Source: an uncultured Actinomycetes bacterium (GTDB taxonomy: Bacteria > Actinomycetota > Thermoleophilia > Solirubrobacterales > 70-9). From it: a DNA stretch of 64,000 nt. The stretch is from NCBI GenBank assembly GCA_963841455.1, contig CAWJCU010000002.1, forward strand, positions 121,770 to 185,769, written 5' to 3'. The position numbers and the translations under genes were made by a program. The notes under the pieces were generated by a model, which was not told where the DNA came from, made no database searches, and saw only the letters and a list, made by a program, of their open reading frames with translations. Positions 32,153 to 62,887 of the stretch are shown here, in pieces (position 1 is the stretch's first letter; each line of letters starts with the position of its first letter).

Positions 32153-32193
32153 GGACTTCCTTTCGCTCTCTCGTGAGTCCGCAAGGGTACAAG

Positions 32194-36245: not shown

Positions 36246-36256
36246 CACGCACCAGG

Positions 36257-38364: not shown

Positions 38365-38367
38365 CGC

Positions 38368-39654: not shown

Positions 39655-39663
39655 GCGGATCGC

Positions 39664-42854: not shown

Positions 42855-42886
42855 GCGCCCAAGCGTATTGCGGCAGTGTCCCCGCG

Positions 42887-43311: not shown

Positions 43312-44742
<1,431 letters not shown>

Positions 44743-44745
44743 CTA

Positions 44746-45666: not shown

Positions 45667-47330
<1,664 letters not shown>

Positions 47331-47380
47331 CTAGCTGGGCTCCCTCGTCTTCCTCATTCGCATTGGTCCAGGAACGCTAG

Positions 47381-47442
47381 TCACTTGCGGCGGCTACGCC
47401 GCCTTACATGCCTCCTTCGTGGCTAAAGCCACTCACCGCCAT
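47381..47442 (-). repeat. two-hairpin intergenic element, copy A (atpH|atpA spacer)
   Basis: RNA sense: AUGGCGGUGAGUGGCUUUAGCCACGAAGGAGGCAUGUAAGGCGGCGUAGCCGCCGCAAGUGA. hp1 is GUGGC/GCCAC and hp2 is GGCGGC/GCCGCC. Confidence 0.8.
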
Positions 47443-47979
47443 CTATGCCGCCTGTGCGACCTCACGCCGCACGCGCTCGAGCTTGCTCCGCACGCTGGCG
47501 TCGAAGATCATGTTGCCGACCCGCAGGACCAGGCCGCCGAGGACGTCCTCATCGACCACGGCTTGGAGGTCGATCTCGCGGCCGGTGCGCTTTTCGATCT
47601 CGCCGCCGATCCGCTTCAGGAGCTCGTCGTCGAGCTCGATCGCGCTCGTCACGGTCACCTCGAGGCGCTTGCGGGCCTCGGCCCACAGCTCGTCGAAGAT
47701 GCTGCGGATGGTGAAGATCGCCGGCATTCGGTGCTTCTCCGCCAGCAGCTCGAGGAAGTTCACGAGCTCCGGCTCGGCGCCAACGAACGCCTTCGAGATC
47801 CCCTCACCCTTCTCCGTCGAGGTGAAGTAGGGGCTGAAGAAGAACACCTGCAGCTCGCGGTGCTCACTCAGGGCATCGACGACCTGGTCGAGCTGCTCGT
47901 GGATCTCGTCGAGCTTCCCGTTCTCCTGGGCGACCTCGAAGAGGGCGTCGGCGTAGACCCTGGAGATCTCCTCCAGCAA
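47443..47979 (-). CDS. atpH: F0F1 ATP synthase subunit delta
   Basis: OSCP-like 178-aa ORF between atpF and atpA. Confidence 0.85.
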   Translation of the reverse strand: MLEEISRVYADALFEVAQENGKLDEIHEQLDQVVDALSEHRELQVFFFSPYFTSTEKGEGISKAFVGAEPELVNFLELLAEKHRMPAIFTIRSIFDELWAEARKRLEVTVTSAIELDDELLKRIGGEIEKRTGREIDLQAVVDEDVLGGLVLRVGNMIFDASVRSKLERVRREVAQAA

Positions 47980-48561
47980 CTAGCTCGCCTCCTCCGCCTC
48001 GGAGCCGGCCAGGGCCGAGAAGTCGACCTCCGAGAGCGCGTCCTCGATCAGGCGGCGCTGGTCGTCGGCGTCGAGGGCCTTCCGCGTGACCTTCTCGGTG
48101 GCGAGGACCGTGAGGTCCGCGACCTCCTGGCGGATCTTGTCGAGCGAGCGCTTGGTCTCGAGCTCGATGTCGCGCCGCGCGGCCCCAACCAGCTCCTCGC
48201 GCTTCTCCTTGCCCGCGGCAGCCGCCTCGGTGAGGGCGGCCTCCGACGCCTTGCGGCTCCGGGCCACGATCTCGTCGGCCTGATTGCGTGCCTCGGCCAG
48301 TCGCTTGCGGTAGTCGGCGAGCAGCTCGTCGGCCTCCTTGCGCTGCCGCTCCGCGGCCTCGATGTTCTCGCGGATCGCATTCGCGCGCTTGTCGAGCTCG
48401 GCCTGGATTCGCGGCAGCGCCGCGCGGCCGAGCACGAACATCGTGACGCCGAAGACGATCAGCGTCCAGATCATCAGCCCGAGAGCGGGCGAGACGAGGA
48501 AGCTGCCGCTGTCCGACGAGGCCAGCGGCAGAAGCCCGGTGATGTCCGGGAGCGGGATCAA
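47980..48561 (-). CDS. atpF: F0F1 ATP synthase subunit b
   Basis: One TM segment plus a long charged helix. The TTG start overlaps the atpE stop (TTGA). Confidence 0.85.
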
Positions 48562-48836
48562 CTCGGCGTCAGGAAGTAGGCGATGAGGCCGAAGATGAAC
48601 GTGTAGAAGGCGACGGCCTCGGTCAGGGCGAAGCCGAGCCAGCGGATCGCCTGGAGCTCGCCCTTCATCTCGGGCTGCCGGGCGACCGACTCGATCTCCT
48701 TGCCGAAGATAAACCCGATGCCGATTCCGGCTCCGATCGAGCCGAGCCCGGCGCCGACGCCCAGCGCGATCGCCTTTCCGGCGTTTGCGACGCCGGTGTC
48801 GGTGACGCCTGCGGCGAGAGTGAGTGGATCAACCAT
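48558..48836 (-). CDS. atpE: F0F1 ATP synthase subunit c
   Basis: Two-TM hairpin, ARQPE loop, LGFALTEA carboxylate helix. Confidence 0.92.
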
Positions 48837-48860
48837 GGGATCTCCTGTCTTTCTGGTGTC

Positions 48861-49770
48861 TCAATGGCTCGATGCGGTGGCCGCGCCCAGATAGATCGCG
48901 GCCAGGATCGAGAAGATGAACGCCTGAAGGGTCGCGATAAGCACGACCTCGAAGATGAAGAACGCGAACGCCATCGGGAAGGTGATGGCGCCGAGGGCCG
49001 CCACGCCGAGCAGCACGGCGAGGCCGCCGGCCATGAAGAGGATCAGGAGGTGGCCCGCGAGGATGTTTGCGAAGAGCCGCACCGAGAGCGAGATCAGGCG
49101 CACGAAATGCGAGATCACCTCGATCATGAAGATCGCTGCCTTGCCGAAGACGTTCATGTCCTCGAGCCCGGGCGGCAGCCAGCTGCGGAAGTAGGGGATC
49201 ACGCCCTGCGCGCGGATCCCCTGGACGTTGTAGCTGATCCAGACCACGAGGGTGAGGACCAGCGGGATCGAGATGTTCGCCGTCGCCGCGTAGATCGCGA
49301 AGCTCGGCACCTCGAGCCCGAAGATGTCGATCGTCTCGGCGCTGTTGGTCGGCAGCGGGATGTAGCCGAGCATGTTCGAGAACCAGATGAAGAAGAAGAG
49401 AGTCGCGACGAACGGGAACCAGCGCGCGACCATCCCCGGCTCCAGGTTGTCGCCGGTGATCGTGTTGCGGGTCAGGTCGTAGGCGAGCTCCATCGCGGTC
49501 TGGATGCGGTTCGGCTTCTGCTCCATGCGGCGCGCGATCCAGGTCAGGGTGAAGATCGTGAGACCGGCCGCGAGCACCAGGTAGAGCACGGCGCGATTGA
49601 TGCTGAGGTCGATGCCGGCGATGTTGATCGGCACCCACGACTCGAGCTTGAACTCGTTCTGCGGCTTGAACTCGTCGTTCTTCCCGGCGCTGCCGAAGAT
49701 GACCAGCAGCAGGATCACCACGAGCGAAGTAGATGCCGCCGATCAGCAGCAGCTTGCGCTTCGTGCTCAT
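48861..49770 (-). CDS. atpB: F0F1 ATP synthase subunit a (one apparent N-terminal frameshift)
   Basis: The body is ORF 48861..49721 (LSVRLFANILAGH motif). The ATG at 49770 overlaps the atpI-like stop (ATGA) and encodes MSTKRKLLLIGGIYFA in the adjacent frame. This joins naturally to VVILLLVIFGSAGK. Confidence 0.85.
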
Positions 49771-50216
49771 GCCTTATTCCCTTCGGGCTGGGACCACACG
49801 TGAATGATCGCCCGGCTCCCGAGCGAGACCGTGACGAGGACCAGCGAGAGGACGGCGGCCGAGAGGCCGGCCTCCCGGCTCCCGAGCAGCCCTACGAGAA
49901 GGATCGCGAGGGTCACGAGCCACAGGCGCCCGAGGATTGAGGCCGCGAGCATGCCGAGGGCGTTTCGCCGGCCGCCCGACGCGAGCTGCTTGCGTGCCCC
50001 GCGCTCGGCAACGAACTGGATGCCGCGCTGGGCGAGCCAGGCCGCGGCGGCGGCGGCGTATCCGAGCATCGACGCCCCGATGAGCAGGAAGACCGGAAGA
50101 GCGATCGCCAGGACCGCCAGGTCCGCGTAGCCGAGGGCCGCTAGCGCGCGCGACCCCGAGTCGCTGCGGCTCGGCGCCCCGCTAGACCCCTCTAAAGCGA
50201 GCGTGGACAACGGCAA
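49767..50216 (-). CDS. ATP synthase I-like membrane protein
   Basis: 149-aa ORF with four hydrophobic segments, immediately upstream of atpB. Confidence 0.55.
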   Translation of the reverse strand: MPLSTLALEGSSGAPSRSDSGSRALAALGYADLAVLAIALPVFLLIGASMLGYAAAAAAWLAQRGIQFVAERGARKQLASGGRRNALGMLAASILGRLWLVTLAILLVGLLGSREAGLSAAVLSLVLVTVSLGSRAIIHVWSQPEGNKA

Positions 50217-50379
50217 ACCCCACGACGAGGCCCGCGAACAGCCCGCCCAGGCCGAGCGGCACCGCAGCCCCCAGCAGCGAGCCGATCCCGTACCCGGCTG
50301 CCGCGCACCCGACGATCGACGCGATCATCAGCGCTCCGGCGACGGCGGCATCGGCTCTCCCTGGCGGGCTCTCGGTCAC
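50182..50379 (-). CDS. AtpZ/ATPase_gene1-like small membrane protein
   Basis: 65-aa two-TM ORF at the head of the atp operon. Confidence 0.55.
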   Translation of the reverse strand: MTESPPGRADAAVAGALMIASIVGCAAAGYGIGSLLGAAVPLGLGGLFAGLVVGFAVVHARFRGV

Positions 50380-50430
50380 CGGGGATGTCGAACTCCGGGC
50401 CCATGGGACGGACAGCCGCTCGACCGCAAA

Positions 50431-50490
50431 TCAGTTGCGGCGCCTTCGGCGCCTTACATGCTGCTTTCGGGGCAAGCCCCTCACCACCAT
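50431..50490 (-). repeat. two-hairpin intergenic element, copy B (wecA-like|atpZ spacer)
   Basis: RNA sense: AUGGUGGUGAGGGGCUUGCCCCGAAAGCAGCAUGUAAGGCGCCGAAGGCGCCGCAACUGA. hp1 is GGGG(CUUG)CCCC and hp2 is GGCGCC/GGCGCC. Confidence 0.8.
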
Positions 50491-50533
50491 GACTGCCGAG
50501 CGGGGCGGCGAATATATCCGACGCAGGCCGCTG

Positions 50534-51817
50534 TTAGGGGTCGCGCACCGCCTCGAACTCGCCCGTCTCCGGGTCAAGGACCTCGAGCTCGCCGCTCGAC
50601 GGGTCGACGACGGCGAAGGTTCCCGTCTCGAGCTCGCGCGCGACGCCCTCGTCGACGGCCTCCGGCGGCAGGGCCTTCGCCACCCGGAAAAGCTCACGCG
50701 CCCGCTCGCCGCGCAGCTTGAGGATCTCGAGCACCACGACCAGGTAGACGCTCGCGGCGAGGGCGGCGAGCGCGAAGAGGCCGATCACGATTGTCCAGAG
50801 GGCGTCGAAGTGCCCGTGGTTGTCCGAGTACGGCACGAAGCGCAGCGCCAGCGCCAGCGCCGCCAGGATCAGCACCCACCCGTAGAGGTAGGCGAGCGTC
50901 CGGCGCTGGGAGAAGCCGATGTTGGTCATCCGGTGGTGAAAGTGCCAGCGATCGGCCTTGTGGATCGGCTGGCGATACTTGATCCGCTTCGCCACGACGA
51001 AGCCGGTGTCGAGGATCGGCACCGCGAGCACGATCAGCGGGAAGAACAGGGCGACGACCGCGTTCGTCTTGAGCGCGCCCTCGATGGCGATCGCGCCCAG
51101 GAGGTAGCCGAGAAGGCCGGATCCGGTGTCGCCCATGAAGCTCCGGGCCGGCGGGAAGCCATGGCGCAGGAACCCGAGCGCGCCGCCCGCGGCGATCGCG
51201 GCGAGCACGCCGGCGCCGGTTCGCTCGAGGGACAGGGCGATGATGGCCATCGTCACTCCCGAAATGGCGCACACACCGGCGGCGAGGCCGTCGACACCGT
51301 CGGTGAAGTTGATGACGTTGATCACCGCGACGATGCCGAGGATCGTCAGCAGGTGGCTCAGCTCGACCTGCCCGAGCGTCGGCAGGTTCACGATGTCGAC
51401 GGTGTTCGGGTTGACGCCGCCGATGAACGGAAGGGTGAAGGCGCCGACCCGAACTCCGTTGAAGACCGGGATCGCCACGATCACGATCTGGCCGAGCAGC
51501 TTGATCGGCGCGCTCAGCTCGAAGACGTCGTCGAGCACGCCGAGCAGGGCGATTCCCACCGCCCCGGCGAGGATGGCCCGCGTGATCGGCGCCAGCGGGA
51601 GGAAGAGAAGGCCGCAGACGACGACCGCGACGAGGATCGCGAGCCCGCCGAGACGCGGGGTGGGGATCGTGTGCAGGCTGCGCTCGTTCGGGTAGTCGAT
51701 CGCGCCGATCCTCTGGGCGAGGCTCTCCGTCGCCGGCACGAGCGCCCAGCTGATCACGGTCGCCAGCACGAACGCGTAGAGGGCGAAGATCGCCTGCGGG
51801 TTGCCGTTGACGAGCAT
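50534..51817 (-). CDS. wecA: glycosyltransferase family 4 (MraY/WecA-like undecaprenyl-phosphate sugar-1-P transferase)
   Basis: NFTDGVDGLAAG motif, about 11 TM segments, and position upstream of the atp operon as for rfe in mycobacteria. It has an extra acidic C-terminal tail of about 80 aa. Confidence 0.85.
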   Translation of the reverse strand: MLVNGNPQAIFALYAFVLATVISWALVPATESLAQRIGAIDYPNERSLHTIPTPRLGGLAILVAVVVCGLLFLPLAPITRAILAGAVGIALLGVLDDVFELSAPIKLLGQIVIVAIPVFNGVRVGAFTLPFIGGVNPNTVDIVNLPTLGQVELSHLLTILGIVAVINVINFTDGVDGLAAGVCAISGVTMAIIALSLERTGAGVLAAIAAGGALGFLRHGFPPARSFMGDTGSGLLGYLLGAIAIEGALKTNAVVALFFPLIVLAVPILDTGFVVAKRIKYRQPIHKADRWHFHHRMTNIGFSQRRTLAYLYGWVLILAALALALRFVPYSDNHGHFDALWTIVIGLFALAALAASVYLVVVLEILKLRGERARELFRVAKALPPEAVDEGVARELETGTFAVVDPSSGELEVLDPETGEFEAVRDP

Positions 51818-51821
51818 TAGG

Positions 51822-52833
51822 TCATCTTCCCGTCGCGGCCAGGACGGCGTCGACCAGGAGCTGCGGGTCGCGAGGCTCGCGGACCCCGATCGGCTCGCTT
51901 CGCTTGCGGAGCTCGAGAGCCTTGGGATCGGAGAGGACGCGCATGCGCCCGGCGGAGATCAGGGCCTCGTCGACGGCCCCCATCCTGCCGCTGAAGAGCG
52001 TCCACACAGGGGTTCCCAACGCCACGGCCTCGCGGTTCATCGTCCCGCCCGCACCAACGACGACATCGGCCTGCGCGACGAGGCTCTGGCCGTCGATCGC
52101 CCGCTCGGGAATGATCAGGTTCTCCGCGCCCCGCCGGGAGAGCGCGGCGCGCTGCGAGTCGGTGCGCGGGATCACCACCGCCTGAGCCCCGTCGTCCTCC
52201 GCGAGACGGTCGATCATGCCCTCGTAGACGGGGTTCTCGGCGTGGTAGGCGGAGCTCTCGGGGGGCGGGCGGACCACGGCGATCACGCGCTCGCGCGCAA
52301 GCCCGAGGTCGTCGATGACGCCCCGGTCCGGCTCCAAGCCGTAGAGGTAGTAGTCCTCCTTGAGGCCGGGATAGCGGAAGAGCTTGCGCGGCGCGGCGCC
52401 CGCGCGCCTCATCGCCTCCGGAGAGATGGCGTCGGGCGCAAGGACGCGGCGAGCGGCGCGAAAGGCGAGCTGGCGCTGAACACCGGCGAACTCGTAATCC
52501 TGCATCTGCACGAGCGGGATTCGGAGCACCGCGGAGACGACGGCGATGTCGACCGATCCGTGGGCGAGAGCGAGGTCGAAACGCTTGGGCCGCGCCCAGC
52601 GGCCTAGGGCGAGGGAGCGGCTGCCGACTGCCGCCGCCTTGGCGCCGCCCCCCGCGCCCGCGTGGCGGCCGATCACCTCATGGTCGATGCCGAGCCGTTC
52701 GAGGATTCCGACCGTCTGCCCGTACTCGCGCGCGGTGACCGAGACCTCGTGGCCTCGCCGCCCGAAGGCGATCGATGATCGGGCGAAGGACGAGCGGATG
52801 GGCGGCAGCCGTGCAGTCGACCCAGACGCGCAT
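51822..52833 (-). CDS. DUF354 family protein (epimerase/glycosyltransferase-like); one apparent frameshift
   Basis: The body is ORF 51822..52676. The ATG at 52833 encodes MRVWVDCTAAAHPLVLRPIIDRLR in the adjacent frame. The body frame reads GHEVSVTAREYGQTVGILERLGIDHEVIGRH just upstream of its GTG. Confidence 0.7.
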
Positions 52834-52895
52834 CACTTGCGGGCGCCTTCGGCGCCCTTACCTGCTGCTTTCCGGGCAAAGCCCCTCACCGACAT
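52833..52895 (-). repeat. two-hairpin intergenic element, copy C (PLP enzyme|DUF354 spacer)
   Basis: RNA sense: AUGUCGGUGAGGGGCUUUGCCCGGAAAGCAGCAGGUAAGGGCGCCGAAGGCGCCCGCAAGUGA. The terminal UGA overlaps the AUG of DUF354. Confidence 0.8.
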
Positions 52896-52906
52896 ACGCG
52901 CCCAGC

Positions 52907-53888
52907 CTAGGTGGCGGGTCGGTAGGTATGCCAGTACAGCACCGGGCCGTCGCCGAACCGGCCCTCGCGGTTAAGCGCGAGGAGGCCCGCAACAGCCTTC
53001 GCGGTGTATACGGGCTCGAGCTCGACGCCCTCGCGGTCGCGCAGAAGCTCGAGGGCGGCGGCGCCCTCCGATGTGGGGTGGCCGTAGCCCGGGCCGAGCC
53101 AGGCGGTCTCCACGGTGACATCGGCGGGCAGCGGGGCTTCGGCGGGCACGCCGTGCCGAGAGAGGAGGCGCGCCGTGCGCGCCGCGAGGCGCGCCACCCG
53201 GCGTGCGTCGAGCTTGATCAGGTCGTTCACGAGGACGCATACCAGGTGCGTGCGAAGGCCCGCGAGCTCGAGCCCGGCGGCGAGGCCGGCCGCCGTGCCT
53301 CCGCTTCCCAGCGCGACGACCGCGTGCGAGGGCTCGGGGATCTCGCCGCCTCGCACCTGCTCGGCGAGCTCGCAGGCCGCGTCCACGTAGCCCGACGCAG
53401 CCGCGCGGCACCGAGCCACCCGGCGGGATCGCATAGGGGCGGTCGACCGGCTGCGGCCTCGCGGGCGACGAGTAGCGCCGCCGAGCGCCACTGCCCGGCG
53501 CACTCCGCCGACGTGGTGCAGCTCCGCCCCGACTCCCGCGGAGCCTCTCGTGCTGCGCGCGCACGTGCTCGTCGATCGGCTGCGGCACGAGGACGAGGAT
53601 CGGCCGGATGCCGAGGCGCCGCGCCGCCCGCGCCGTGGTGAGGCCGTGGTTCGTCCCGAGGGCGCCGCCGGTGACGACGCTCCGGCTTCGCCGCCGGCGA
53701 GCCTCGCCGAGAAGCCACTCGAGCTTTCTGGCCTTGTTGCCGCCGAGCTCGCTGTAGGCGCCGTCGTCCTTGATCCAGACGGGCGCGCGGCCGCCCTCCG
53801 CGCCGAGCCTCTCGAGCTCGCGCACGGGCGTCGGCCCGCCGCCGAGCTCGACCCGGGGAAGCTCAAGGGCGGACAGGGGCCCGCTCAA
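52907..53888 (-). pseudogene. PLP-dependent ACC deaminase/D-cysteine desulfhydrase family protein, several frameshifts
   Basis: Successive frames read [22 protein letters not shown]...[23 protein letters not shown]...[12 protein letters not shown], then GAELHHVGG, then [14 protein letters not shown], then [12 protein letters not shown]...[11 protein letters not shown]...[10 protein letters not shown]...YWHTYRPAT and the stop. Confidence 0.65.
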
Positions 53889-54647
53889 GCGCAGGTTGGC
53901 CGCTTCGACGGAGCTGACCGCCTTCGCCGAGCCGGGGCCGACGTGGAAGGCGAGCGGGTTGGGGCTCGACGGAACGTCGAGCGGCTTCCCGTTCGCGGTG
54001 ATCTCCGCCTCGCCGTTGCCGAGGCCGAGCTGGAAGCCCGCCGCCTTGAACGGTCCCTGGTCGTCGCCCGCCGCGAGGATCTGGCCGTTCACGAGGCGCT
54101 TGCCGGAGAGGTCGACGAGGCAGACCCAGACCGTTCCGGTCGGGCTGATCTCGATCGAGGCCTTCGTCGGCTCGGGGGGCGGCTTCGGTGGGTGGAGTGG
54201 CTGTGCTGATGGCGCCTGCGCGTGCTGCGCGCGGCTGCCCTGCGTGCCGGCCGTCTCCTTGCCGCCGGAGCCGCCGATCTGCCCGATGACGAAGAGCACG
54301 GCGAGGACGGCCACGACCGCGCCGGCGGCGACGAGCACTCCCCGCGAGGGGAAACCCGCCCCGCCGGGCACGGCGGGCGACGGGTCGGCGCTCCTCGGCG
54401 GGCGTGGCGTCGCTCGTCGCCCACCGTCCGTCGGAACTCCTCGACGAGGGCGTCGGCGTCGAGGCCGAGGTAGGAGGCGTAGGTCCGGAGGAACCCGCGC
54501 GCGTACGCCGGCGCCGGGAGGGCGCTCCAGTCCTCGGCCTCCAGCGCCCGCAGGTACCGGACGCGGATCTTGGTCGCGTCGGAGACCTCGTCGAGAGCCG
54601 AGGCCGCGCTCCGTGCGCGCTCGGCGAAGGCTTTCGCCGATCGGCAT
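53889..54647 (-). pseudogene. RodZ-like HTH / DUF4115 membrane protein, frameshifted; 3' end undefined
   Basis: Starts ATG 54647 [17 protein letters not shown]. It shifts to [56 protein letters not shown]. It returns for the TM segment [19 protein letters not shown] and the C-terminal [26 protein letters not shown]...[10 protein letters not shown]. There is no in-frame stop before the next gene. Confidence 0.6.
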
Positions 54648-54703
54648 AGCGTGGATTCTCGCCCCTAAAGGGGCGAGGCGCCGGGCGGAAGGGACCGCGC
54701 AGC

Positions 54704-55976
54704 CTAGGCGTGGGCGGGCGAGAGCTGCTCGTAGAGCGGGTATCGCTCCATCAGCGCGCGCGGTGCGCTCGCGCAGCGAGTCGCGCTCGTCCTCGAAGCG
54801 GTCCGACAGCGCGACGCAGACCACGTCGGCGATCTCGCGGAGGTCGTCCTCGACCAGGCCGCGAGTGGTCAGCGCCGGCGTCCCGATCCGCAGGCCGGAA
54901 GGGTTCATCGGCGGGCGCTCGTCGAACGGGATCGCGTTGCGGTTGACGGTGATCCCGACCTCCTCGAGGCGGCTCTCCGCGGTCTTGCCGTCGAGGCCGG
55001 TCGAGCCGAGGTCGACGAGCACGAGGTGGACGTCGGTGCCGCCGGTCAGCACGTCGACCCCGCCGGCGATCGAGCCCCTCGGCGAAGGCCTTCGCGTTGG
55101 CGATCGTCTGGCGCTGGCGGGCGCGGAACTCCTCCGTCTGAGCGAGGCCGAGCGCCACCGCCTTGGCGGCGATCACGTGCATGAGGGGGCCGCCCTGCTG
55201 CCCGGGGAACACGGAGCGGTCGATGTCCTTCTGGAGCTCCTCGGTGCACAGGATCATCCCGCTGCGCGGCCCGCAGAGGGTCTTGTGGATCGTCGTCGTG
55301 ACCACGTCGGCGTGCGGGCACCGGGCTCGGATGCTCGCCCGCGGCGACGAGGCCGGCGAAGTGAGCCATGTCGACCATGAGGCTGCGCGCCGACGGAGTC
55401 GGCGATCTCGCGGAAGGCCGCGAAGTCGAGATGGCGCGAGTATGCCGACCAACCGGCGACGATCACCTTCGGCCGGTGCTCGTGCGCGAGCCGCTCGACC
55501 TCCTCCATGTCGCAGCGGAGGTCCTCGCGGCGGACGTGGTAGGCGACCACGTCGTAGAGGCGGCCCGAGACGTTCAGCTTCATCCCGTGCGTGAGGTGGC
55601 CGCCGTGGTCGAGCGCCATCCCCATGATCGTGTCGCCGGGCTCGAGCATCGCCATGTAGGCGGCGTTGTTGGCCTGCGCGCCCGCGTGCGGCTGGACGTT
55701 CGCGTGCTCGGCGCCGAAGAGCTCCTTCGCGCGGTCGATCGCGAGCTGCTCGGCGACGTCGACCTCCTCGCAGCCGCCGTAGTAGCGGCGGCCCGGATAC
55801 CCCTCGGCGTACTTGTTGGTGAGGACCGAGCCAGTCGCCTCGAGCACCGCGGCGGGGACGAAGTTCTCCGAGGCGATCATCTCGAGCGTCGACTGCTGGC
55901 GGTGGAGCTCGCGCTGGAGCACCTCCGCGATCTGCGGATCGACGTCGGCGAGGGGGGCTGAGTGGAGGTCGGTCAC
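54704..55976 (-). pseudogene. glyA: serine hydroxymethyltransferase, at least four apparent +1 frameshifts
   Basis: Begins at GTG 55976 ([39 protein letters not shown]...). It continues as [22 protein letters not shown], then [19 protein letters not shown]...AKAFAEGL, then [14 protein letters not shown]...[15 protein letters not shown], then [16 protein letters not shown] and the stop. These pieces lie in five successive frames spread over ORFs 55254..57101, 55046..55378, 54751..56082 and 52971..55052. Confidence 0.85.
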
Positions 55977-56018
55977 CGCACTGCAGCTTATGACACGCGT
56001 CGGCGCCCGGCGACTTAT

Positions 56019-56032
56019 TGAACGATCGTTCA
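56019..56032. promoter_or_regulatory. perfect 14-bp palindrome TGAACGATCGTTCA (GAAC-N4-GTTC) in the glyA / R2-like-TetR divergent region
   Basis: Read directly from the sequence. It lies in the only AT-richer patch between GTG 55976 (glyA) and ATG 56085 (R2-like). Confidence 0.5.
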
Positions 56033-56084
56033 GTAATTGTGTTACGGTGCCGCCGAAGCGCACCCCGCCACGAGAGGAGCACAC

Positions 56085-57050
56085 ATGAGCATCAGCGAAG
56101 TCGAGCCCGAGCTGAAGACCGAGGACGAGGCCCTGTCGGTCCTCATGGACGGCGACATCGACAAGGTGATGTCGGGTCTCGACCGGATCGTCGAGGCCGC
56201 CCCCTCCTACGAGAAGCTCTTCATGCGCTGGCAGCGCCAGCACTGGTCGACGGAGGACTTCGACTTCACCGAGGACGCTCGGCAGTGGGCGGACCCGGAC
56301 ATGTTCACCGAGGACGAGCGCAGGTTCATCCAGTTCGGCTTCTCCGAGTTCTTCCTCGGCGAGGAGCGCGTCACCGTCGAGCTGCTGCCGTTCGCGCTCG
56401 CCGCGCCGACCCACGAGGCCCAGATCTTCCTCACTACCCAGATCTCCGACGAGGCGAAGCACGTCGTCTTCTGGGATCGCTTCTACCGCGAGGTGCTGAA
56501 GACCGACGCAGATGGCATCGGCGACATGCTCGACAAGCAGCGCTCGGTCATCAACGACGACTGGAAGAAGCTCTTCGACGACATGCTCCACGAGGCCGCC
56601 GAGGACCTGCGAAAGGACCCGAGCGACTTCCCCGCCCTCGTCCGGGGCGTGACGCTCTACATGGTCGTGATCGAGGGGATGCTCGCCCTGACGGCAGCTC
56701 GGTTCATGATCAAGTCGATGCGCGAGCGCAACTGGTTCCCCGGCTTCGTCGCCGGGTTCACGGCGGTCAACCGCGACGAGTCGCGACACGTGGGCTTCGG
56801 GGTCAAGTTCCTCGCCGACGCGATCAAGGACGACTCCGCCAACGCGCGGATCGTCGAGGCGACGCTCAAGGAGGCGCTGCCGGTGGCACCGCTGGTCTTC
56901 GTCCCGCCGTGGGTCGACGACCCGTACGACTTCGACACGCCCTTCTACCACTCGTCCGAGGTGTTCGCGTACGCCGCGAAGTCGCTGTCGAAGAAGCTCG
57001 CGGCGATGGGCCTCGACCCGGCGATGCTGGCCGAGGGCGCCCCAGCTTGA
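56085..57050 (+). CDS. ribonucleotide reductase R2-like ferritin-fold di-metal carboxylate protein
   Basis: Two EXXH motifs (DEAKH, DESRH) plus a glutamate in VIEGM. ATG 56085 is preceded by GAGAGGAG. No nrdA/nrdE partner is present in the window. Confidence 0.75.
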
Positions 57051-57664
57051 GCGTCGATAGACCGCCGAGCCGGGGCGCGCGCGCCCCGGCCGGCCGTCCA
57101 CGGGCGCTCGCGAGCGGATCCTCGCGGCCGGCTACGAGACCCTGCTTGCCGACGGCTACGCGGGCCTCACGATGGCGAAGGTCGCGCTGCGCGCGGGCGA
57201 GAGCAAGGCGCTGATCTCCTACCACTTCGGCTCCAAGCAGGGCTTGGTCGCGGCCGCCGCCCGGCAGGTGGGCGACGAGATCACGGCCGAGGTGCTCGCC
57301 GGGATCGGCGTGCCGCCGAGCGTCGAGGCGATCGTCGAGGGCGCGGCCGCCGGCGTGCGGCGGATCCTCGACCGCGACGAGCGCATCGCCCGCGCCTACT
57401 TCGACCTCAACGCCGTCTCGGTCGTGGAGGAGGACGTGCGCGCGATCCTGCGCGAGGTGAAGGACCGCTGGCGCGAGGTCATCGGCGAGCTCCTGCGCTC
57501 GGCGGGTGTCGAGCGCCGTCGCATCGGCACCGCGGTGATGCTGATCATGGCCGGCCTCGAGGGACTCACCCTCGAGCGGATCGAGCGCGGCGAGACGGCG
57601 GAGCTGGCAAAGGCGCGAAAGCTGTTCGTCGACTCGGTCGCCGAACGCGCGGTCTGCGGCCTAG
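57047..57664 (+). pseudogene. TetR-family transcriptional regulator, frame disrupted at both ends
   Basis: The HTH core [46 protein letters not shown] has no start codon in its own frame. The TTG at 57047 (TTGA overlap with the R2-like stop) encodes [13 protein letters not shown] in the adjacent frame. The core frame then lacks a stop until 58308, whereas the adjacent frame stops at 57662-57664. Confidence 0.6.
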
Positions 57665-58110
57665 GGAAGCTCGCCGGCCTCGATCTCCTCGAGCTGCTTC
57701 ACGCGGCGCTCGTGTCGGCCGCCCTCGAACTCGGTCGCGAACCAGACTTTCACGATCTCCTCGGCGAGGCCCGTGCCGACGACCCGCGCGCCCATCGAGA
57801 GGACGTTCGCGTCGTTGTGCAGCCGCGCGAAGCGAGCCGTGTAGAGGTCGTTGCAAAGCGAGGCACGGGCGCCGCGCACCTTGTTCGCGGCGAGCTGCTC
57901 GCCCTGTCCGGAGCCCCCGATCACGATGCCGCGCTCGGCGTTTCCGGCGACGACCTCGCGGGCGACGCCCGAGCAGATCGGCGGGTAGTCGACGGGCTCG
58001 GTGGAATCGGTGCCGAGGTCGATGATCTCGTGGCCGTCCGCCTCGAGCAGGCCCTTGACGTGCTCCTTGAGCTCGAACCCCGCGTGGTCGGCGCCGATCG
58101 CGATCCTCAT
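57661..58110 (-). CDS. rpiB: ribose-5-phosphate isomerase B
   Basis: MRIAIGADHAGFELKEH...GIVIGGSGQGEQLAANK; 149 aa, intact. Confidence 0.92.
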   Translation of the reverse strand: MRIAIGADHAGFELKEHVKGLLEADGHEIIDLGTDSTEPVDYPPICSGVAREVVAGNAERGIVIGGSGQGEQLAANKVRGARASLCNDLYTARFARLHNDANVLSMGARVVGTGLAEEIVKVWFATEFEGGRHERRVKQLEEIEAGELP

Positions 58111-58128
58111 GGCGAGGGCGACGATAAA

Positions 58129-58193
58129 CCATTGAGGGCGCCACAGGCGTCCTTACACGCTACTTTCGGTGCTAAAGCCCCTCACCGGAATAC
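58129..58193 (-). repeat. two-hairpin intergenic element, copy D (tsaC|rpiB spacer)
   Basis: RNA sense: GUAUUCCGGUGAGGGGCUUUAGCACCGAAAGUAGCGUGUAAGGACGCCUGUGGCGCCCUCAAUGG. Each stem has one mismatch. Confidence 0.75.
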
Positions 58194-58823
58194 CCGCCAA
58201 CCGTTCCGCGACCTCTTGATCGGCGAGGGCACCCTCTCGAAGGATCGCCCAGCCCCCGCCGGCGTCGAGATCCGTGAGGTCGATGACGGTGGACGGCAAG
58301 CCCGGTGAGCTCGCCGCCGTCGATGGCCAGGTCCACCCCGGCGGCGATCGCGGGATCGACGTCGGCGAAGCTCGCCGGCGCTTCGTCCCCGCTCCGGTTG
58401 GCGCTCGTCTGGAAGATCGGGGTGCCGGCGCCGGCCAGCGGCCCCTCGATGAGGCGGATCCCAAGCCGCTCGGGTGTCGCCCGGCACGCGAGTGGATAGT
58501 GATGCGCCGGATTGTCGACGACGAGGGTGACCGGGCCGGGCATGAGCGCCGCGACGGCCCGCCGTGTCGCCGGGCCCATGTCCGCGAGGAGCTCGCGCAT
58601 CATCAGCGGGTCGAAGTACATGACCGCCGAGGGCTTGCCGTCGTCGCGTCCCTTGATCTCGTGGATGCGCTCGATCGCCCCGCCGTTCAGCGGGTCGCAG
58701 GCGAGCCCGTAGAGACCGTCGGCCGGAAAGAGCGCGACGCCGCCGTTCGTCACGCACCGCTCGAGGGCCCGGCGGGCGGCCGCCGCGCCGTCGCGCTCGA
58801 TCGCGACGAGCTCCCGGCGCCAT
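58153..58823 (-). pseudogene. tsaC: L-threonylcarbamoyladenylate synthase (TsaC/YrdC/Sua5 family), two apparent +1 frameshifts
   Basis: Starts at ATG 58823 (MAP). It shifts to ELVAIERDGAAAARRALERCVTNGGVALFPADGLYGLACDP...IFQTSANRSGDE...IDGGELTGL, then to PSTVIDLTDLDAGGGWAILREGA...; the stop is the UAA inside repeat copy D. Confidence 0.75.
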
Positions 58824-59677
58824 CAGCGACGTCCGAGGACGACGCGCTCGATTCCGGCGAGGTCACGGCGGCGCTCGGCGCGGGTGAAGCCGGCCTCGCA
58901 CATGAGGCCCTCCACCTCGTCCGCTTGGCCCAGGCCGACCTCCAGAGCGATCGAATCGCAATTCAGCGAGGAAGCACAGGAGGTCGCGGATGGGTCCGAG
59001 GCCGTCGGGGCCTCCGAGAAGAGCCTCTTTCGGCTCGAAGTCGCGGATCTCCGGTTGGAGCGTTGCCCAGTCGCCATCAGGGACGTAGGGCAGATTGGCC
59101 ACGACGAGGTCAGAGAACTCGGCCGTTTGGCGCTTTTCGGGTGCTATGGACCCAAAAGGCGCCAATGCGAAGGAAGCTCGATCGGCGAGACCCAGACGTT
59201 CCGCGTTGCCGCGCGCCACATCGAGCGCGCCCGGCGCTCGTGTCCGTCCCCCTGACTTCGACGTGCGGCAACTCATCGGCCACCGCCAGCGCAACGGCCC
59301 CGCTGCCGGTACCTACGTCGACGACCGGAAGCAGGCCCGAGCTCCAACGCCACCTCGACCAGCAACTCCGTCTCGGGCCGCGGAATGAGCACCCGTCGAT
59401 CAACCTCCAGCTCGATCCGCCGGAACCACTTGCGCCCGGCGATGTACGCGACCGGCTCGCGCCGGAGGCGCCGCCGCACCATCGCCCCAAAGCGCCGTGC
59501 GGCTTCGGGGCCCACCCCCTCCTCGCTGCCCGCGCGAAGCGCGGCGGCATCGGCCGCCATCGCCTCCGCCAGCAGCACCTCGGCATCGAGCCGCGGCGTA
59601 CCGACGCCGGCGGCGGCAAGGGCGTCCGCTGCGGCGCCGAGCGCCTCCCCGACCTTTCCCGCGGCGACCGGGCTCAC
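58823..59677 (-). pseudogene. prmC: peptide chain release factor N5-glutamine methyltransferase, three apparent +1 frameshifts
   Basis: Begins at GTG 59677 (...EPVAYIAGRKWFRRIELEVDRRVLIPRPETELLVE). It continues VVDVGTGSGAVALAVADELP, then LVVANLPYVP (NPPY-type motif)...EPKEALLGGPDGL, then the C-terminus ...LAGIERVVLGRR. Total length is 855 nt, a multiple of 3. Confidence 0.8.
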
Positions 59678-59684
59678 GCCGAGC

Positions 59685-60755: not shown

Positions 60756-60775
60756 CGATGCGATTATGAGGGGTC

Positions 60776-61558
60776 GTGAGCGCCACGCCGGCCAAGCCGA
60801 CTGCCACTCAGTACGACGACCCCCGCCACAACTACCGTCGCTACTGGGAGGGCCGCGAGTACGAGCACGCGGCCGAGGAGATCGCAATCCGACGTCTGCT
60901 CAAGGGACGCCACTTCGGCCGGGCCGCCGACGTGGGCGGAGGATTCGGGCGCATCAGCCTGCTGCTCTCCGAGTACGCCGACGAGGTGACGCTCGCGGAG
61001 CCCTCCCGCCAGCAGCTCGACCTTGCCGAGGACTTCCTGCAAGGCCACCCCGAGATCGCTCGCCGGCAGATGCAGGCCGATGCCCTCGACTTCCGCGACG
61101 GCTCGCTGGACCTCGTGACGATGGTCCGCGTGATGCACCACCTTCCGGAGCCCCGGGCCGAGCTGCACGAGCTCGCACGAGTCCTCGGGCCAGGGGGGAC
61201 GCTGGTGCTCGAGGTGGCGAACTACGCGCACGCGCGCAACCGGGTGAAGCACGCGCTGAAGCGGCGACCGCTTCCGAGCGAGCCCGTCGACATCCGCTCC
61301 GAGCCGCGCCGCCGTGAGGGGGGCATTCCGTTCGTCAACCACAACCCGCATACGGTGCTCGCGCAGATCGACGAAGCCGGGTTCCGCGTCTCCAGGACGC
61401 TTTCGGTCTCGAACCTGCGCAGCCCGCGGCTCAAGCGGATGCTCCCTGAGGGCCTCATGCTCTCGGCGGAGCGCGTGCTTCAGCCGGCGCTGGCGAGATC
61501 CTGGTTCGGCCCGAGCGCCTTCATCCTGGCCCGCAGGCGCCAAACGCAGGCGCCCTAG
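60776..61558 (+). CDS. class I SAM-dependent methyltransferase
   Basis: ADVGGGFGRISLLL motif I and a GGTLVLEV post-I region. It is the only plus-strand gene inside the rpmE-prfA block. Confidence 0.8.
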   Translation: MSATPAKPTATQYDDPRHNYRRYWEGREYEHAAEEIAIRRLLKGRHFGRAADVGGGFGRISLLLSEYADEVTLAEPSRQQLDLAEDFLQGHPEIARRQMQADALDFRDGSLDLVTMVRVMHHLPEPRAELHELARVLGPGGTLVLEVANYAHARNRVKHALKRRPLPSEPVDIRSEPRRREGGIPFVNHNPHTVLAQIDEAGFRVSRTLSVSNLRSPRLKRMLPEGLMLSAERVLQPALARSWFGPSAFILARRRQTQAP

Positions 61559-62601
61559 GCGACGATCTCGATCTCCTCGCCGGTCGCGCCCGGCGTCTCG
61601 ACCGCAAGCACTGCCTCGAGCGAGGCGATCGCGACCTCGAGCTGGCTTCGGTCCGGCTCGCGGGTCGTGAGGTTCTGGAGCATCAGCCCCGGCCACATGA
61701 CCGCCCGGACCCAGCGCTTGCGGCGGTACTTGCCCGCGAGCTTGATGACCTCGTACGACAGGCCCGCGATGAGCGGGATGCCCAGGACGCGAGTGGCCAC
61801 CAGCCAGTACCAGGCGGGGAGGCCGATGGGCGCGAAGACGAAGATCGCAAGGACCATCACGATCAGCAGAAAGCTCGTGCCGCAGCGCGGATGCAGGCGC
61901 GAGTAGCGCTCGGCGCGCGCCGGTGTAAGGCGGTCCCCGGCCTCGTAGCAGGAGATGGTCTTGTGCTCGGCTCCGTGGTACTCGAAGACCCGCCGGAGGT
62001 CGCGGACGCGGCTGATCAGCCACAGATAGCCGATGAAGATCGCGGTGCGAAGGAGCCCCTCCACGAGCCAGAACAGGAACGCCGACCCGAGCTGGTCGCG
62101 GATGAGGCTCGTCGCGCCGACCGGCACGACGAAGAAGAGGCCGACCGCGACTGCCAGCGAGAGCACGATCGTCAGGCCCCAGGTGAAGCCCCCGATCTCC
62201 TGCTCCTCCCCCGGCTCGCTGACCTGGGCGTTGGCGGAGATCGCGAGGGCGCGGAAGCCGATCTTCAGCGACTCCGCGAGCGCGACGACCCCCCGGATCA
62301 CTGGGACCCGAAGGATTCGGTGGCGCTTGGCCCACGAGACGAGCGGCTCGGAGGTGACCTCGATCTCGCCGATGGCGCTCGGCGGCGCGTCCTCGGCGAC
62401 CGGCCGACGCACCGCGACCGCCCAGGTCGAGACGCCGCGCATCATCACGCCCTCCAGCACGGCCTGCCCGCCCACCGGGGCGTCGCGATTTGCAACCGGG
62501 AGCCCGTCGGGCATCGGCGCGCGCTGGACGTGCAGCTGACCGTCCTCGGCGGCAGGCGGCCGTTTCGCCGGCGCGGTCGCCTTCGACGCCGCGACGCTCA
62601 C
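61555..62601 (-). CDS. DUF1385 family membrane protein
   Basis: GGQAVLEGVMMRG, YHGAEHKTI and RCGTSF motifs. Its position next to prfA/prmC is typical for this family. Confidence 0.8.
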   Translation of the reverse strand: MSVAASKATAPAKRPPAAEDGQLHVQRAPMPDGLPVANRDAPVGGQAVLEGVMMRGVSTWAVAVRRPVAEDAPPSAIGEIEVTSEPLVSWAKRHRILRVPVIRGVVALAESLKIGFRALAISANAQVSEPGEEQEIGGFTWGLTIVLSLAVAVGLFFVVPVGATSLIRDQLGSAFLFWLVEGLLRTAIFIGYLWLISRVRDLRRVFEYHGAEHKTISCYEAGDRLTPARAERYSRLHPRCGTSFLLIVMVLAIFVFAPIGLPAWYWLVATRVLGIPLIAGLSYEVIKLAGKYRRKRWVRAVMWPGLMLQNLTTREPDRSQLEVAIASLEAVLAVETPGATGEEIEIVA

Positions 62602-62608
62602 GCCAAAT

Positions 62609-62677
62609 CCCCTGCGGGCACCTTAGGTGCCCTTACACGCTTGTTTCGGAGCTAACGCTCCTCAAGGCACACCGCAC
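62609..62677 (-). repeat. two-hairpin intergenic element, copy E (rpmE|DUF1385 spacer)
   Basis: RNA sense: GUGCGGUGUGCCUUGAGGAGCGUUAGCUCCGAAACAAGCGUGUAAGGGCACCUAAGGUGCCCGCAGGGG. hp1 is GGAGC/GCUCC and hp2 is GGGCACC/GGUGCCC. Confidence 0.75.
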
Positions 62678-62680
62678 GAC

Positions 62681-62887
62681 CTACGACCGCCGGCGCGCCG
62701 CGCGGCGCCGGAACCGCTCGACCCGTCCTCCGGTGTCGACGAGCTTCTGCTTGCCCGTGTAGAACGGGTGGCACTCGGAGCAGATCTCCACGTGGAGCTC
62801 TGGCTTGGTCGACCGCGTGTAGAACTCGTTGCCGCACGAACAGCGGACGTGTGCGAGCACATACTCGGGATGGATTCCGGTCTTCAC
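62681..62887 (-). CDS. rpmE: 50S ribosomal protein L31 (Zn-ribbon type)
   Basis: (M)[12 protein letters not shown]...[13 protein letters not shown]; GTG start. Confidence 0.95.

Follow-up and report, generated by a model that had tools for sequence, protein, structure and literature searches.

A structured intergenic repeat of Solirubrobacterales with features of a mobile stop-to-SD cassette

Five copies between genes of the window

The window, a stretch of 64,000 nucleotides from an uncultured Actinomycetes bacterium, was searched using a four-copy profile of a short repeat (nhmmer). Exactly five copies (A to E) were found between 47.4 and 62.7 kb, all on the minus (coding) strand and with E values from 5e-18 to 1e-12; the next best match had an E value of 0.36. 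Copy A (47373-47451, R1 68.2 bits; core from GGUGAG to GCAAGUGA at 47381-47437) lies between atpH (Pfam OSCP), which stops at UAG 47443-47445, and atpA, which starts at AUG 47328-47330, and its linker is the variant GAAGGAGGCAUGUAA. Copy B (50423-50499, core 50431-50485, R1 74.3 bits) is located 48 nt past the stop codon of a Glycos_transf_4 (wecA/MraY-like) gene and upstream of an ORF for a small AtpZ/AtpI-like membrane protein, and occupies the loop of an older hairpin with arms at about 50497-50504 and 50416-50423. Copy C (52825-52904, core 52833-52890, R1 78.6 bits), whose linker is AGG-UAA and thus has no start codon, follows a PALP-family gene with its stop 16 nt upstream (UAG 52907-52909). 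The next gene, identified as DUF354 by Pfam match (N-terminus MRVWVDCTAAAHPLVLRPIIDRL / MRVWVDCTAAAHPL), takes its AUG (52831-52833) from the copy's tail GCAAGUGAUG.

Copy D (58120-58200, nhmmer E = 1.1e-12, R1 69.2 bits) is partly decayed, with one mismatch per stem and a divergent tail. Its flanking genes were assigned by Pfam to Sua5_yciO_yrdC and LacAB_rpiB; the latter (rpiB) starts at AUG 58108-58110, and the former, a tsaC/Sua5-like gene, runs into the copy, its true C-terminal frame (ILREGALADQEVAERLAGIPVRGFSTESSV / AERLAGIPVRGFSTESSV) ending at the linker UAA (58153-58155). This termination at the conserved UAA was absent from the preliminary description of the region. Copy E (62600-62680, core about 62608-62666, R1 68.1 bits, RNA fold z-score -3.7) begins with CUUGAGG instead of GGUGAGG and is flanked by rpmE (Pfam Ribosomal_L31), whose stop (UAG 62681-62683) is 13 nt upstream, and by a DUF1385 gene, whose GUG start (62599-62601) is 6 nt past the tail.

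The preliminary description had drawn attention to mini-ORFs in these copies, and all of its coordinates and sequences for ORFs, stops and starts were recovered on the minus strand. An AUG at 47440-47442 in copy A opens a 12-codon ORF (MAVSGFSHEGGM) ending at UAA 47404-47406, and positions 47404-47417 read GAAGGAGG-C-AUG-UAA. Copy B contains the ORF MVVRGLPRKQHVRRRRRRN (50431-50490); the terminal UGA of the copy C ORF (52833-52895) overlaps the DUF354 start as UGAUG; and in copy E a GUG at 62675-62677, just after the rpmE stop, opens 14 codons up to UAA 62633-62635. A start codon directly before the UAA (RUG-UAA) occurs in four of the five copies, the exception being copy C. As had been noted, neither the peptides nor their frames are conserved, and mini-ORFs of 12-20 codons are the chance expectation for any 60-nt stretch.

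A family of two-hairpin repeats and its turnover

The window copies belong to a small repeat family with units of ~65-80 nt (copies of ~60-80 nt) and the consensus (a-GGUAUkCc)GGUGAGG-hp1-GAAAGCAGCRUGUAAGG-hp2-GCAAGUGAUUCA, that is, two GC-rich covarying hairpins with nearly invariant unpaired sequence between and flanking them. The family comprises 132 CM matches, the copies coming from Solirubrobacterales MAGs, and an exact-pattern scan of the genomes of 185,579 species returned 66 repeat loci, labelled only as Solirubrobacterales, as Actinomycetes/Actinobacteria/Actinomycetota or as unclassified bacterium MAGs. Since exact patterns were used in two of the searches, the copy sets are skewed to the canonical sequence. 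No Rfam family matched the repeat and no description of it was found in the literature. To judge from these searches, it is a previously undescribed element, lineage-specific to Solirubrobacterales (class Thermoleophilia).

Family membership and structure are demonstrated by covariation: pairing in the two hairpins reaches 97.9% with 126 compensatory cells, a result equalled by 0 of 500 shuffles. Mutual information across the family alignment detected the stem pairs alone, with no covariation supporting a pseudoknot or third helix, and the fold z-scores of single copies are modest. The architecture is retained in a highly diverged copy (L126) whose stems are entirely different, and the hairpin-2 module is reiterated at atpH-atpA in L082, L087 and L105. 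Conservation is extreme in ~34 unpaired nucleotides, and the copy at atpH-atpA persists throughout a clade; this exceeds the needs of a selfish hairpin repeat and speaks against a purely mobile nature, whereas recognition by a specific host factor would fit.

Docking to stop codons was scored in 68 distinct copies that follow a gene in sense orientation. In 47 of them, the first base of the upstream stop is 1-18 nt ahead of GGUGAGG, and in the other 21 (31%) the stop lies inside the element, so that all 68 fall at -18 to -1 or within the element; the internal stops are the UGA of GG-UGA-GG (13 copies), the UAG of loop 1 (6) and the linker UAA (1). In L043, the upstream gene has lost its last 9 codons to the insertion. 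The next start codon follows the repeat tail at a median distance of 15 nt. The physical joining of the element to neighbouring reading frames, first proposed from the window copies, is thus general across the family. All three reading frames are stopped in 65% of copies, compared to 11% of shuffled sequence, and no frame preference of the upstream stop relative to the linker UAA was seen. Stop docking and three-frame enrichment are established features of the repeat.

Turnover and tandem amplification were directly observed between relatives. The copy A site is empty (TAG-G-TAGCGTT) in the two closest relatives, L067 and L068 (AtpA identity 98.7-99%), and copy A is therefore a recent gain. 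At the copy B site, L067 also carries the repeat; L068 lacks it there, and the same older hairpin, CCCGCT(C/T)G...CGAGCGGG, has a 13-nt loop. At the copy C site, L068 carries one copy (AGA-UAA) and L067 a tandem array of four 64-nt units that belong to a different subtype. Among 80 other Solirubrobacterales genomes, no copy was present at the copy E site or within 6 kb of it (0 in 0.9 Mb around rpmE-DUF1385). The window itself contains two empty sites, both on the minus strand. One (32162-32182; flank BLAST and side-by-side sequences, flanks 95% identical) has 12 unrelated nt (ACTCACGAGAGA) where L039 (genome CAWGKQ01) has a full copy; the other, the atpG-atpD spacer (44728-44748), reads UAG UAGCUAGAAC GGAGA AGA AUG and is filled in L067 only, where a full copy replaces the stretch from stop codon to SD and its 5' GUGA provides the atpG stop. 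A single spacer exists in three states (sense copy in L009, antisense copy in L021, no copy in L055), L079 and L130 acquired their copies at the atpB-atpE junction independently of each other, and relatives contain perfect tandem arrays (6x80, 3x92 and 4x64 nt) as well as deletion remnants (L076, L100 and L069).

Such differences in presence and absence among close relatives are the behaviour of a mobile or duplicative repeat rather than of a regulatory signal fixed in place. Against this stand several filled/empty pairs in which the insertion is not clean, the copy having taken the place of 12-13 nt found at the empty site. A palindrome that was copied from the end of the upstream gene is present at some junctions and gives a hint of template switching. 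At the copies and junctions examined, no transposition machinery, terminal inverted repeats or consistent target site duplication was found, and the word mobile therefore refers solely to the comparative presence and absence of copies.

A stop-to-SD cassette and its alternatives

The reading that we favour, and consider reasonably probable, is that of a lineage-specific mobile or duplicative intergenic repeat built as a stop-to-SD cassette. New copies would form within the short spacer from the upstream stop to the downstream Shine-Dalgarno sequence or start, or take its place, mostly in the orientation of the genes. The 5' half of the repeat offers UGA, UAG and UAA, each in a different frame, and its 3' end abuts an AGGAG-like SD; insertion would therefore preserve or supply upstream termination and leave downstream initiation intact, and this might be why essential operons (atp, rpmE-prfA, ribosomal protein genes) tolerate copies. 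Such tolerance could account for the design of the repeat, whereas the mini-ORFs, the RUG-UAA pair and the UGAUG overlap would be by-products of it and not the primary selected function.

Copies are not oriented at random: at 52 co-directional sites, 42 are sense and 10 antisense (p = 9e-6). The atpH-atpA copy is kept across a whole clade, and its orthologues share 85.5% identity, against 61.6% at atpA 4-fold sites (chance identity 45.5%). Since old copies such as this one change at a lower rate than synonymous sites, some have probably been domesticated as RNA structure in polycistronic mRNA. The orientation bias and the slow evolution would also agree with a tentative, clearly less likely reading, in which the repeat is a host cis-acting RNA punctuation, its mobility being secondary, and the single-stranded linker between stable hairpins is a candidate processing site, e.g. 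for RNase E. Cleavage would give the upstream cistron a 3' hairpin and the downstream cistron a 5' hairpin, and thereby uncouple their stabilities. The layout (hairpin, 15-nt conserved A/U-containing linker, hairpin), its retention in the diverged L126 copy and the presence of copies in highly expressed operons (e.g. atp, rplK-rplA-like, rpmE) are in line with this, and AGCRU in the linker fits, as AG↓CRU, the RN↓CNU motif of Mycobacterium smegmatis RNase E (PMC10641625). However, antisense copies and those between convergent or divergent genes, which flank about a quarter of sites, are as intact as the sense copies, and most Solirubrobacterales manage without the element at the same junctions. 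Moreover, we estimate that an RNCNU match occurs by chance in about one in five 15-nt linkers, and AGG variants lose the U of the motif.

The preliminary description had instead proposed a translation device, with RUG-UAA and the in-element stops serving termination and reinitiation or insulation between cistrons. Bacterial start-stops known from Ribo-RET provide a precedent (bioRxiv 10.1101/520783). The start-stop pair is present in 73% of copies, (A/G)UG in 82% and a stop at the UAA position in 85%; the upstream stop is always in the element or within ribosome-footprint distance of hairpin 1, and the UGAUG overlap with the DUF354 start is shared by copy C and its orthologues. Nevertheless, we regard this device as improbable. 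In searches that did not constrain the linker, AGG often, and also ACG or CGG, took the place of the start codon in many copies, and UCA or UGA replaced UAA; the stop is lost through UCA, CAA and GAA variants, which occur even among atpH-atpA orthologues. The 3' UGA, which had been taken for a conserved stop, is confined to copies A to C in the window and to 20% of copies in the family. The SD is wrongly spaced (0-1 nt, aligned spacing), and in copy A the gap of 1 nt between SD and AUG is insufficient for SD-led initiation. The missing frame preference between upstream stop and UAA and the equal conservation of antisense and non-operonic copies also speak against the device. Given this variability, the poor SD spacing, the antisense and non-operonic copies and the turnover between relatives, neither the start-stop pair nor the 3' UGA is supported as the main object of selection. 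The earlier interpretation is thus borne out in part, by stop docking and three-frame closure but not by these two elements; whether additional copies retain the stops while varying in frame has a mixed answer, as they mostly keep the 5' UGA and the UAA, but do not keep the start codon or the 3' UGA. On this sequence evidence, the in-element stops are more important than the start-stop pair.

We give a similarly low probability to a REP- or PATE-like element acting at the DNA level, its hairpins and conserved single strands being ssDNA sites that a nucleoid protein or a HUH/Y1 transposase (RAYT, IS200/IS605-type TnpA) would recognise; in that case the orientation bias would reflect the replication strand and not transcription. 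Two hairpins of subterminal type with conserved 'guide-like' flanking sequence, the absence of target site duplications, the resemblance of the 5' flank consensus (AGGUAUUC) to the element's own 3' end (AAGUGAUUC), the intact antisense copies and the spacer entered in either orientation would suit it. However, no inverted doublets (REPINs) were seen, the multimers being all head-to-tail, the hairpins are dissimilar to each other, with stems that differ among copies of one genome, and no Y1 transposase gene adjoins the copies examined. It is very improbable that the element is a new small RNA with catalytic or ligand-binding activity, e.g. a self-cleaving ribozyme with the ~34 unpaired nucleotides as tertiary core, as the high share of conserved unpaired nucleotides around two covarying helices, the multi-copy intergenic spread known from some bacterial ribozymes and the lack of a matching known family are set against the unsupported pseudoknot or third helix, the modest single-copy z-scores, the unrelated functions of the downstream genes and the simpler account that mobility gives of turnover and of equal conservation in both orientations.

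Comparison with known systems

The start-stop mini-cistrons described by retapamulin Ribo-seq (bioRxiv 10.1101/520783) are single-locus and defined by ribosome occupancy, whereas the RUG-UAA described here lies in a structured repeat without a properly spaced SD and is missing in about a quarter of copies. The REP/BIME elements of Enterobacteria are likewise short, GC-rich and extragenic, often lie between co-transcribed genes and show compensatory stem changes; they are also known stabilisers of upstream mRNA. According to Liang and Deutscher, REPs that lie some 15 nt or less from a stop codon reportedly lower the expression of the upstream gene. A REP consists, however, of one imperfect palindrome with GTAG at its 5' end, and REPs typically occur in inverted pairs and are linked to a RAYT transposase (REPIN-RAYT), whereas the repeat has two different hairpins, a long conserved linker and direct repeats only, and no RAYT was identified. 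The BOX elements of Streptococcus pneumoniae are also modular, structured and intergenic, with a reiterable internal module (hairpin 2 in the repeat), and are co-transcribed with their neighbours. They differ in phylum and sequence and are longer (boxA, boxB, boxC), and we know of no report of stop-codon docking or three-frame stops in them.

By analogy, the closest counterpart is the mycobacterial MIRU, a mobile, intercistronic and ORF-coupled repeat (Supply et al. 1997, as summarised in PMC12548453 and PMC3184786). The two have no sequence relationship, our pattern scans having matched only Solirubrobacterales-type MAGs and no Mycobacterium. In contrast to MIRUs, the repeat conserves its ORFs in neither frame nor length, shows -4 coupling (UGAUG) at some sites only and yielded no tetranucleotide direct repeats, but conserves three-frame stops and a fixed two-hairpin structure. 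Both occur in Actinomycetota as units of 40-100 bp with GC-rich internal inverted repeats, lie in co-transcribed intergenic spacers inside operons and are mostly oriented with the flanking genes. Moreover, in both the unit ends overlap the stop or start codons of the neighbours, small ORFs lie inside, orthologous sites are found filled and empty, and there are tandem arrays of variable copy number.

A two-hairpin repeat family and its copies in the window

A profile built from four copies and run over the 64 kb detected exactly five copies of the element, all on the minus strand (E values of 5e-18 to 1e-12, with the next match at E = 0.36). They are located between atpH and atpA (copy A), after a Glycos_transf_4 gene (copy B), between a PALP-family gene and DUF354 (copy C), between a tsaC-like gene and rpiB (copy D) and between rpmE and DUF1385 (copy E). 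According to Pfam, the minus-strand gene order in the 43 to 63 kb region is rpmE, DUF1385, prfA, prmC, tsaC-like and rpiB, then, further on, glyA, the PALP-family gene, DUF354, Glycos_transf_4 (wecA-like), a small membrane-protein ORF and atpB-E-F-H-A-G-D. The five copies all cluster within this rpmE-to-atp housekeeping region, and no copy was found at 1-47000, despite long co-directional gene runs such as the minus-strand one at 32945-43300. Frameshifts break several housekeeping genes at 52560-58830 (minus strand): glyA is spread across three frames (ORFs 55254-57101, 54751-56082 and 52971-55052), DUF354 shifts frame about 25 codons past its AUG (52831-52833), and the Pfam-matching body and the C-terminus of the tsaC-like gene lie in different frames. 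Either the assembly contains indels here, possibly from long-read homopolymer errors, or the genes are pseudogenes.

When 185,579 species, each represented by one genome, were scanned for the exact pattern, 66 loci were obtained. All are in MAGs that carry the label Solirubrobacterales, Actinomycetes/Actinobacteria/Actinomycetota or unclassified bacterium, with many matches in several of these MAGs. In the fetched DNA, 95 and later 132 copies were found by profile and covariance-model searches. The consensus consists of (a-GGUAUkCc), the 5' end GGUGAGG, hairpin 1 (GGGGC-UUUA-GCCCC), the unpaired linker GAAAGCAGCRUGUAAGG, hairpin 2 (GGNCGSC-GAA-GSCGNCC) and the 3' end GCAAGUGAUUCA. Over both hairpins, 97.9% of cells are paired, with compensatory double changes in 126 cells, and this pairing was approached by 0 of 500 shuffles and by no slid register. 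Sequence variation is mostly confined to four base pairs, the unpaired segments being almost invariant. Mutual information over 128 unique copies revealed no further pairing or pseudoknot: only the four variable stem pairs gave a signal, weaker signals followed subfamilies and orthology, and tertiary pairing was therefore rejected. Minimum free energy folds suggest that hairpin 2 may be longer by 3 bp (UGU/GCA, AA bulge), in columns that are invariant and hence give no covariation signal. The evidence for the structure is covariation rather than single-sequence folds, the z-scores of which reach -2.4 in copy A and -3.7 in copy E but are weak, at -0.3 to -0.7, in copies B, C and D.

The element was also compared to known RNA classes. 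Rfam 15 contains no family for it: at the gathering threshold only Ms_IGR-5 passed in the whole window, and at E<=10 the region 47300-53000 gave chance matches only, unrelated to the copies. A known RNA family was rejected on these grounds. An intrinsic (Rho-independent) terminator was also rejected, since no U run follows hairpin 2 in the 128-copy consensus, the next sequence being GCAAGUGAUUCA.

Position relative to reading frames

The preliminary description had proposed that the copies are joined to neighbouring reading frames, and its local details were reproduced: all four mini-ORFs are present on the minus strand, copy A contains GAAGGAGG-C-AUG-UAA, DUF354 starts within a UGAUG in copy C, and in copy E a GUG stands one codon past the rpmE UAG. 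Copy D, the fifth (58120-58200, minus strand), is partly decayed. In its true C-terminal frame (...STVIDLT...ILREGALADQEVAERLAGIPVRGFSTESSV and stop) the tsaC-like gene terminates at the conserved UAA of this copy, a point that the preliminary description had missed.

In its general form the proposal holds across the family. Genes were called with a codon-usage scorer and local frame tests. For 68 distinct copies the upstream gene is in sense orientation; its stop starts 1-18 nt before GGUGAGG in 47 of them, and in the other 21 it lies inside the element, at the UGA of GG-UGA-GG (13 copies), the UAG of loop 1 (6), the linker UAA (1) or a later stop (1). The canonical element carries UGA, UAG and UAA in three different frames within its first 34 nt, and of 120 unique cores 65% have a stop in every frame, vs 11% of shuffles. 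No frame preference of the upstream stop relative to the element's UAA was found. The downstream start, as far as the approximate predicted starts allow, lies at a median of 15 nt past the tail, usually just behind an AGGAG-like Shine-Dalgarno (SD) sequence. At atpH-atpA the same SD occurs in genomes with an empty site and is thus native to atpA. Between co-directional genes 42 of 52 sites carry the element in sense orientation and 10 in antisense (p = 9e-6 for the sense bias), and a further 11 sites are divergent and 9 convergent.

Turnover and the atpH-atpA site

The closest genomes available, represented by loci L067 (CAVYUG01) and L068 (CAWGKQ01), have AtpA proteins 98.7-99% identical to that of the window. 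The copy A site is empty in both (TAG-G-TAGCGTT in L067), the copy B site is filled in L067 and empty in L068, and the atpG-atpD junction is filled in L067 and empty in the window and in L068. The PALP/DUF354 site holds one copy in the window and in L068, and in L067 (4909-5173) a tandem array of four 64-nt units that belong to a different subtype. Copy B is located inside the loop of an older hairpin (window 50497-50504 with 50416-50423, arms CCCGCTCG and CGAGCGG). As this hairpin exists without the element in L068, where its loop is 13 nt, hairpin loops may be preferred landing sites. The site at 32162-32182 is empty in the window and filled in L039, a locus with flanks 95% identical. It adjoins the match to Ms_IGR-5, an actinobacterial sRNA family (51 bits, 32241-32408, minus strand), upstream of the gene at 30881-32152.

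Similar differences were seen in further loci. The spacer between a gene ending in ...QVKKL and one starting with MAKK..., possibly nusG-rplK, contains a sense copy in L009 (5971-6052), an antisense copy in L021 (6370-6450) and none in L055 (4725-4748). The junction that follows, in front of a gene whose product begins with MAHGKRY (possibly rplA), is filled in L009 and L049. At atpB-atpE, L079 and L130 were filled independently at different nucleotides. Several filled/empty pairs correspond to the replacement of 12-13 nt, not to clean insertions. The upstream gene of L043 lost its last nine codons to the insertion, and the UAA of the element is now its stop. No copies were found around DUF1385 in 0.9 Mb from the 80 genomes listed, and copies D and E are absent from 80/80 genomes sampled, a set that excludes the closest relatives of the window.

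Besides the L067 array, perfect head-to-tail arrays occur in L041 (6x80 nt, 6159-6640) and L051 (3x92 nt, 3373-3640), and a further one in L038 (2x66 nt, 4474-4620). The arrayed unit is the element plus its 5' flank, and in L051 it takes in the end and the stop codon of the upstream prs-like gene. At atpH-atpA in four loci (L082, L087, L105 and L108, around 10520-10760) a full copy is followed by the 3' module alone, ACG.AAGG-hairpin 2-GCAAGAGAUUCAAG, in two to five iterations. At about ten independent sites a perfect palindrome of 8-14 bp lies directly 5' of the element (L012, 3820-3865; L051, 3625-3660; L009, 5930-5985; L013/L209; L006; L022). Its 5' arm is the upstream coding end and its 3' arm the reverse complement, and the stop codon often falls within the loop; in L012 and L051 the same sequence as in the 5' arm recurs past the element (X-X'-element-X). 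These palindromes could be template-switch footprints or pre-existing terminator hairpins.

The atpH-atpA junction carries a copy in 16/80 genomes, and several deletion remnants occur (L076, L100 and L069). The copy is confined to one large clade and patchy inside it, and the window's copy A is a separate, recent gain. Orthologous copies at this site are 85.5% identical vs 61.6% at adjacent atpA 4-fold sites, chance identity being 45.5%. Judging from these identities, the site is kept intact either by selection or by repeated conversion from other copies, and its slow evolution suggests that some copies have been domesticated. One copy, in L126 (10531-10600), is highly diverged: it consists of GAUGAG, a hairpin, GAAAGCGGCAU, a second hairpin and CGCAUUGAUUAGGAG, lacks the UAA, and has kept the architecture with both stems completely different in sequence.

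Possible functions and relation to known repeats

We consider it probable that the element is a mobile or duplicative structured repeat whose build lets it occupy the space from a stop codon to the next SD without harmful polar effects. Since the upstream stop lies within a ribosome footprint of hairpin 1, as estimated from the measured stop distances and the known footprint size, upstream translation must melt this hairpin, after which the linker may be cleaved, bound or scanned.

The main rival, to which we give a rather low probability, is intercistronic mRNA processing at the linker. The linker fits the mycobacterial RNase E motif RN|CNU (PMC10641625). Antisense copies are as intact as sense ones, with an unpaired-consensus identity of 0.881 vs 0.883 and fully paired stems, and conservation among copies is therefore independent of lying on the sense strand of a host mRNA. 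An equally tentative extension combines mobility with a host function. The element would be a domesticated mobile 'operon punctuation cassette', the invariant unpaired sequences of which are recognised by a host factor (an RNase, an RNA-binding protein or the terminating ribosome). A sense copy would end upstream translation in any frame, cause the mRNA to be processed or stabilised in a defined manner between the two protective hairpins, and then hand over to the downstream SD. If so, a spreading element would re-tune expression ratios in essential operons, atp and those for ribosomal proteins among them.

The preliminary description had favoured selection on translation through a conserved start-stop and conserved stops, which now seems improbable. 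The stop at the UAA position stood up, occurring in 85% of all unique cores, and the remainder fared less well, with a start codon in 82%, start and stop together (RUG-stop) in 73% and the 3' UGA in 20%, all values inflated by the pattern-based ascertainment of copies. In a linker-unconstrained scan AUG/GUG was often replaced by AGG, also by ACG or CGG, and UAA by UCA or UGA; start or stop is lost in 3/15 orthologous atpH-atpA copies. Copy A has an SD-like GGAGG at a distance of 1 nt from its AUG, but this variant is rare, and SD-like sequences are either absent or 0-1 nt from the linker start codon. ORFs bridging to the neighbouring genes overlap them at some sites (UGAUG in copy C and L049, UAG-AUG in copy A), vary in frame and length, and are missing from many copies.

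Recognition as single-stranded DNA by an HUH-type system is likewise improbable, and a new ribozyme is very improbable.

The element has no terminal inverted repeats, as GGUGAGG is not the reverse complement of the GCAAGUGAUUCA 3' end, and in flank logos the similarity of the 5' and 3' sides is direct, not inverted. Within-copy flanks match at 5.21 of 8 positions vs 5.16 +/- 0.07 between copies, so that no target-site duplication is apparent, and direct repeats of 8-10 nt occur at few sites (L049, L038 and L014).

Much work has been done on small interspersed repeats of Proteobacteria, Firmicutes and Mycobacterium. Thermoleophilia are an abundant, almost uncultured soil lineage. The present family is informative because its structure is simple and strongly supported and because it is located inside essential operons, where it shows how a repeat can be harmless, with three-frame stops at its 5' side and an SD bordering its 3' side. 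Domesticated copies, if there are any, would make the family a natural system for studying how intercistronic RNA structure sets subunit ratios. Synthetic operons in high-GC hosts could use the element as a compact insulator of natural origin, and the tandem arrays are potential VNTR markers for strain typing in metagenomes. Gene callers will misplace 3' ends and small ORFs at element sites.

A MITE was rejected, as terminal inverted repeats and a fixed-length target-site duplication are lacking, and so was a phage origin, the 19-nt core having no match in IMG/VR viral contigs. The genes between oppositely oriented copies are ordinary ones (acyl-CoA dehydrogenase, inositol-phosphate synthase), with no transposase. 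REP and REPIN-RAYT sequences have a single imperfect palindrome with a conserved 5' tetranucleotide and commonly form inverted pairs, whereas the element has two unlike hairpins with a conserved linker and its multimers are all head-to-tail; membership was rejected on this architecture. The element resembles REP/BIME and BOX in being structured, co-transcribed and modular, and the reiterated 3' module recalls boxB of the pneumococcal BOX, but it differs from both in architecture. No Thermoleophilia or Solirubrobacterales repeat of this sort was found in the literature, and the element is thus, as far as literature searches show, a small interspersed structured intergenic repeat undescribed for Thermoleophilia.

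The mycobacterial MIRU is functionally the closest known system. MIRUs are intercistronic and co-oriented, with ORFs overlapping the stop and start codons of their neighbours, filled and empty sites and VNTR arrays (PMC12548453, PMC3184786). The element shares the size of 40-100 bp, the intercistronic position in operons, the co-orientation with flanking genes and the tandem arrays of variable unit number. As for -4 coupling, in which an internal ORF overlaps the neighbours' stop and start, such overlaps are seen at some sites, with varying frames and ORF lengths. It is not a MIRU by sequence or distribution, as judged from its absence from Mycobacterium in the exact-pattern scan of 185,579 species. 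It differs also in its conserved feature, a fixed two-hairpin fold with stops in three frames instead of a coupled ORF.
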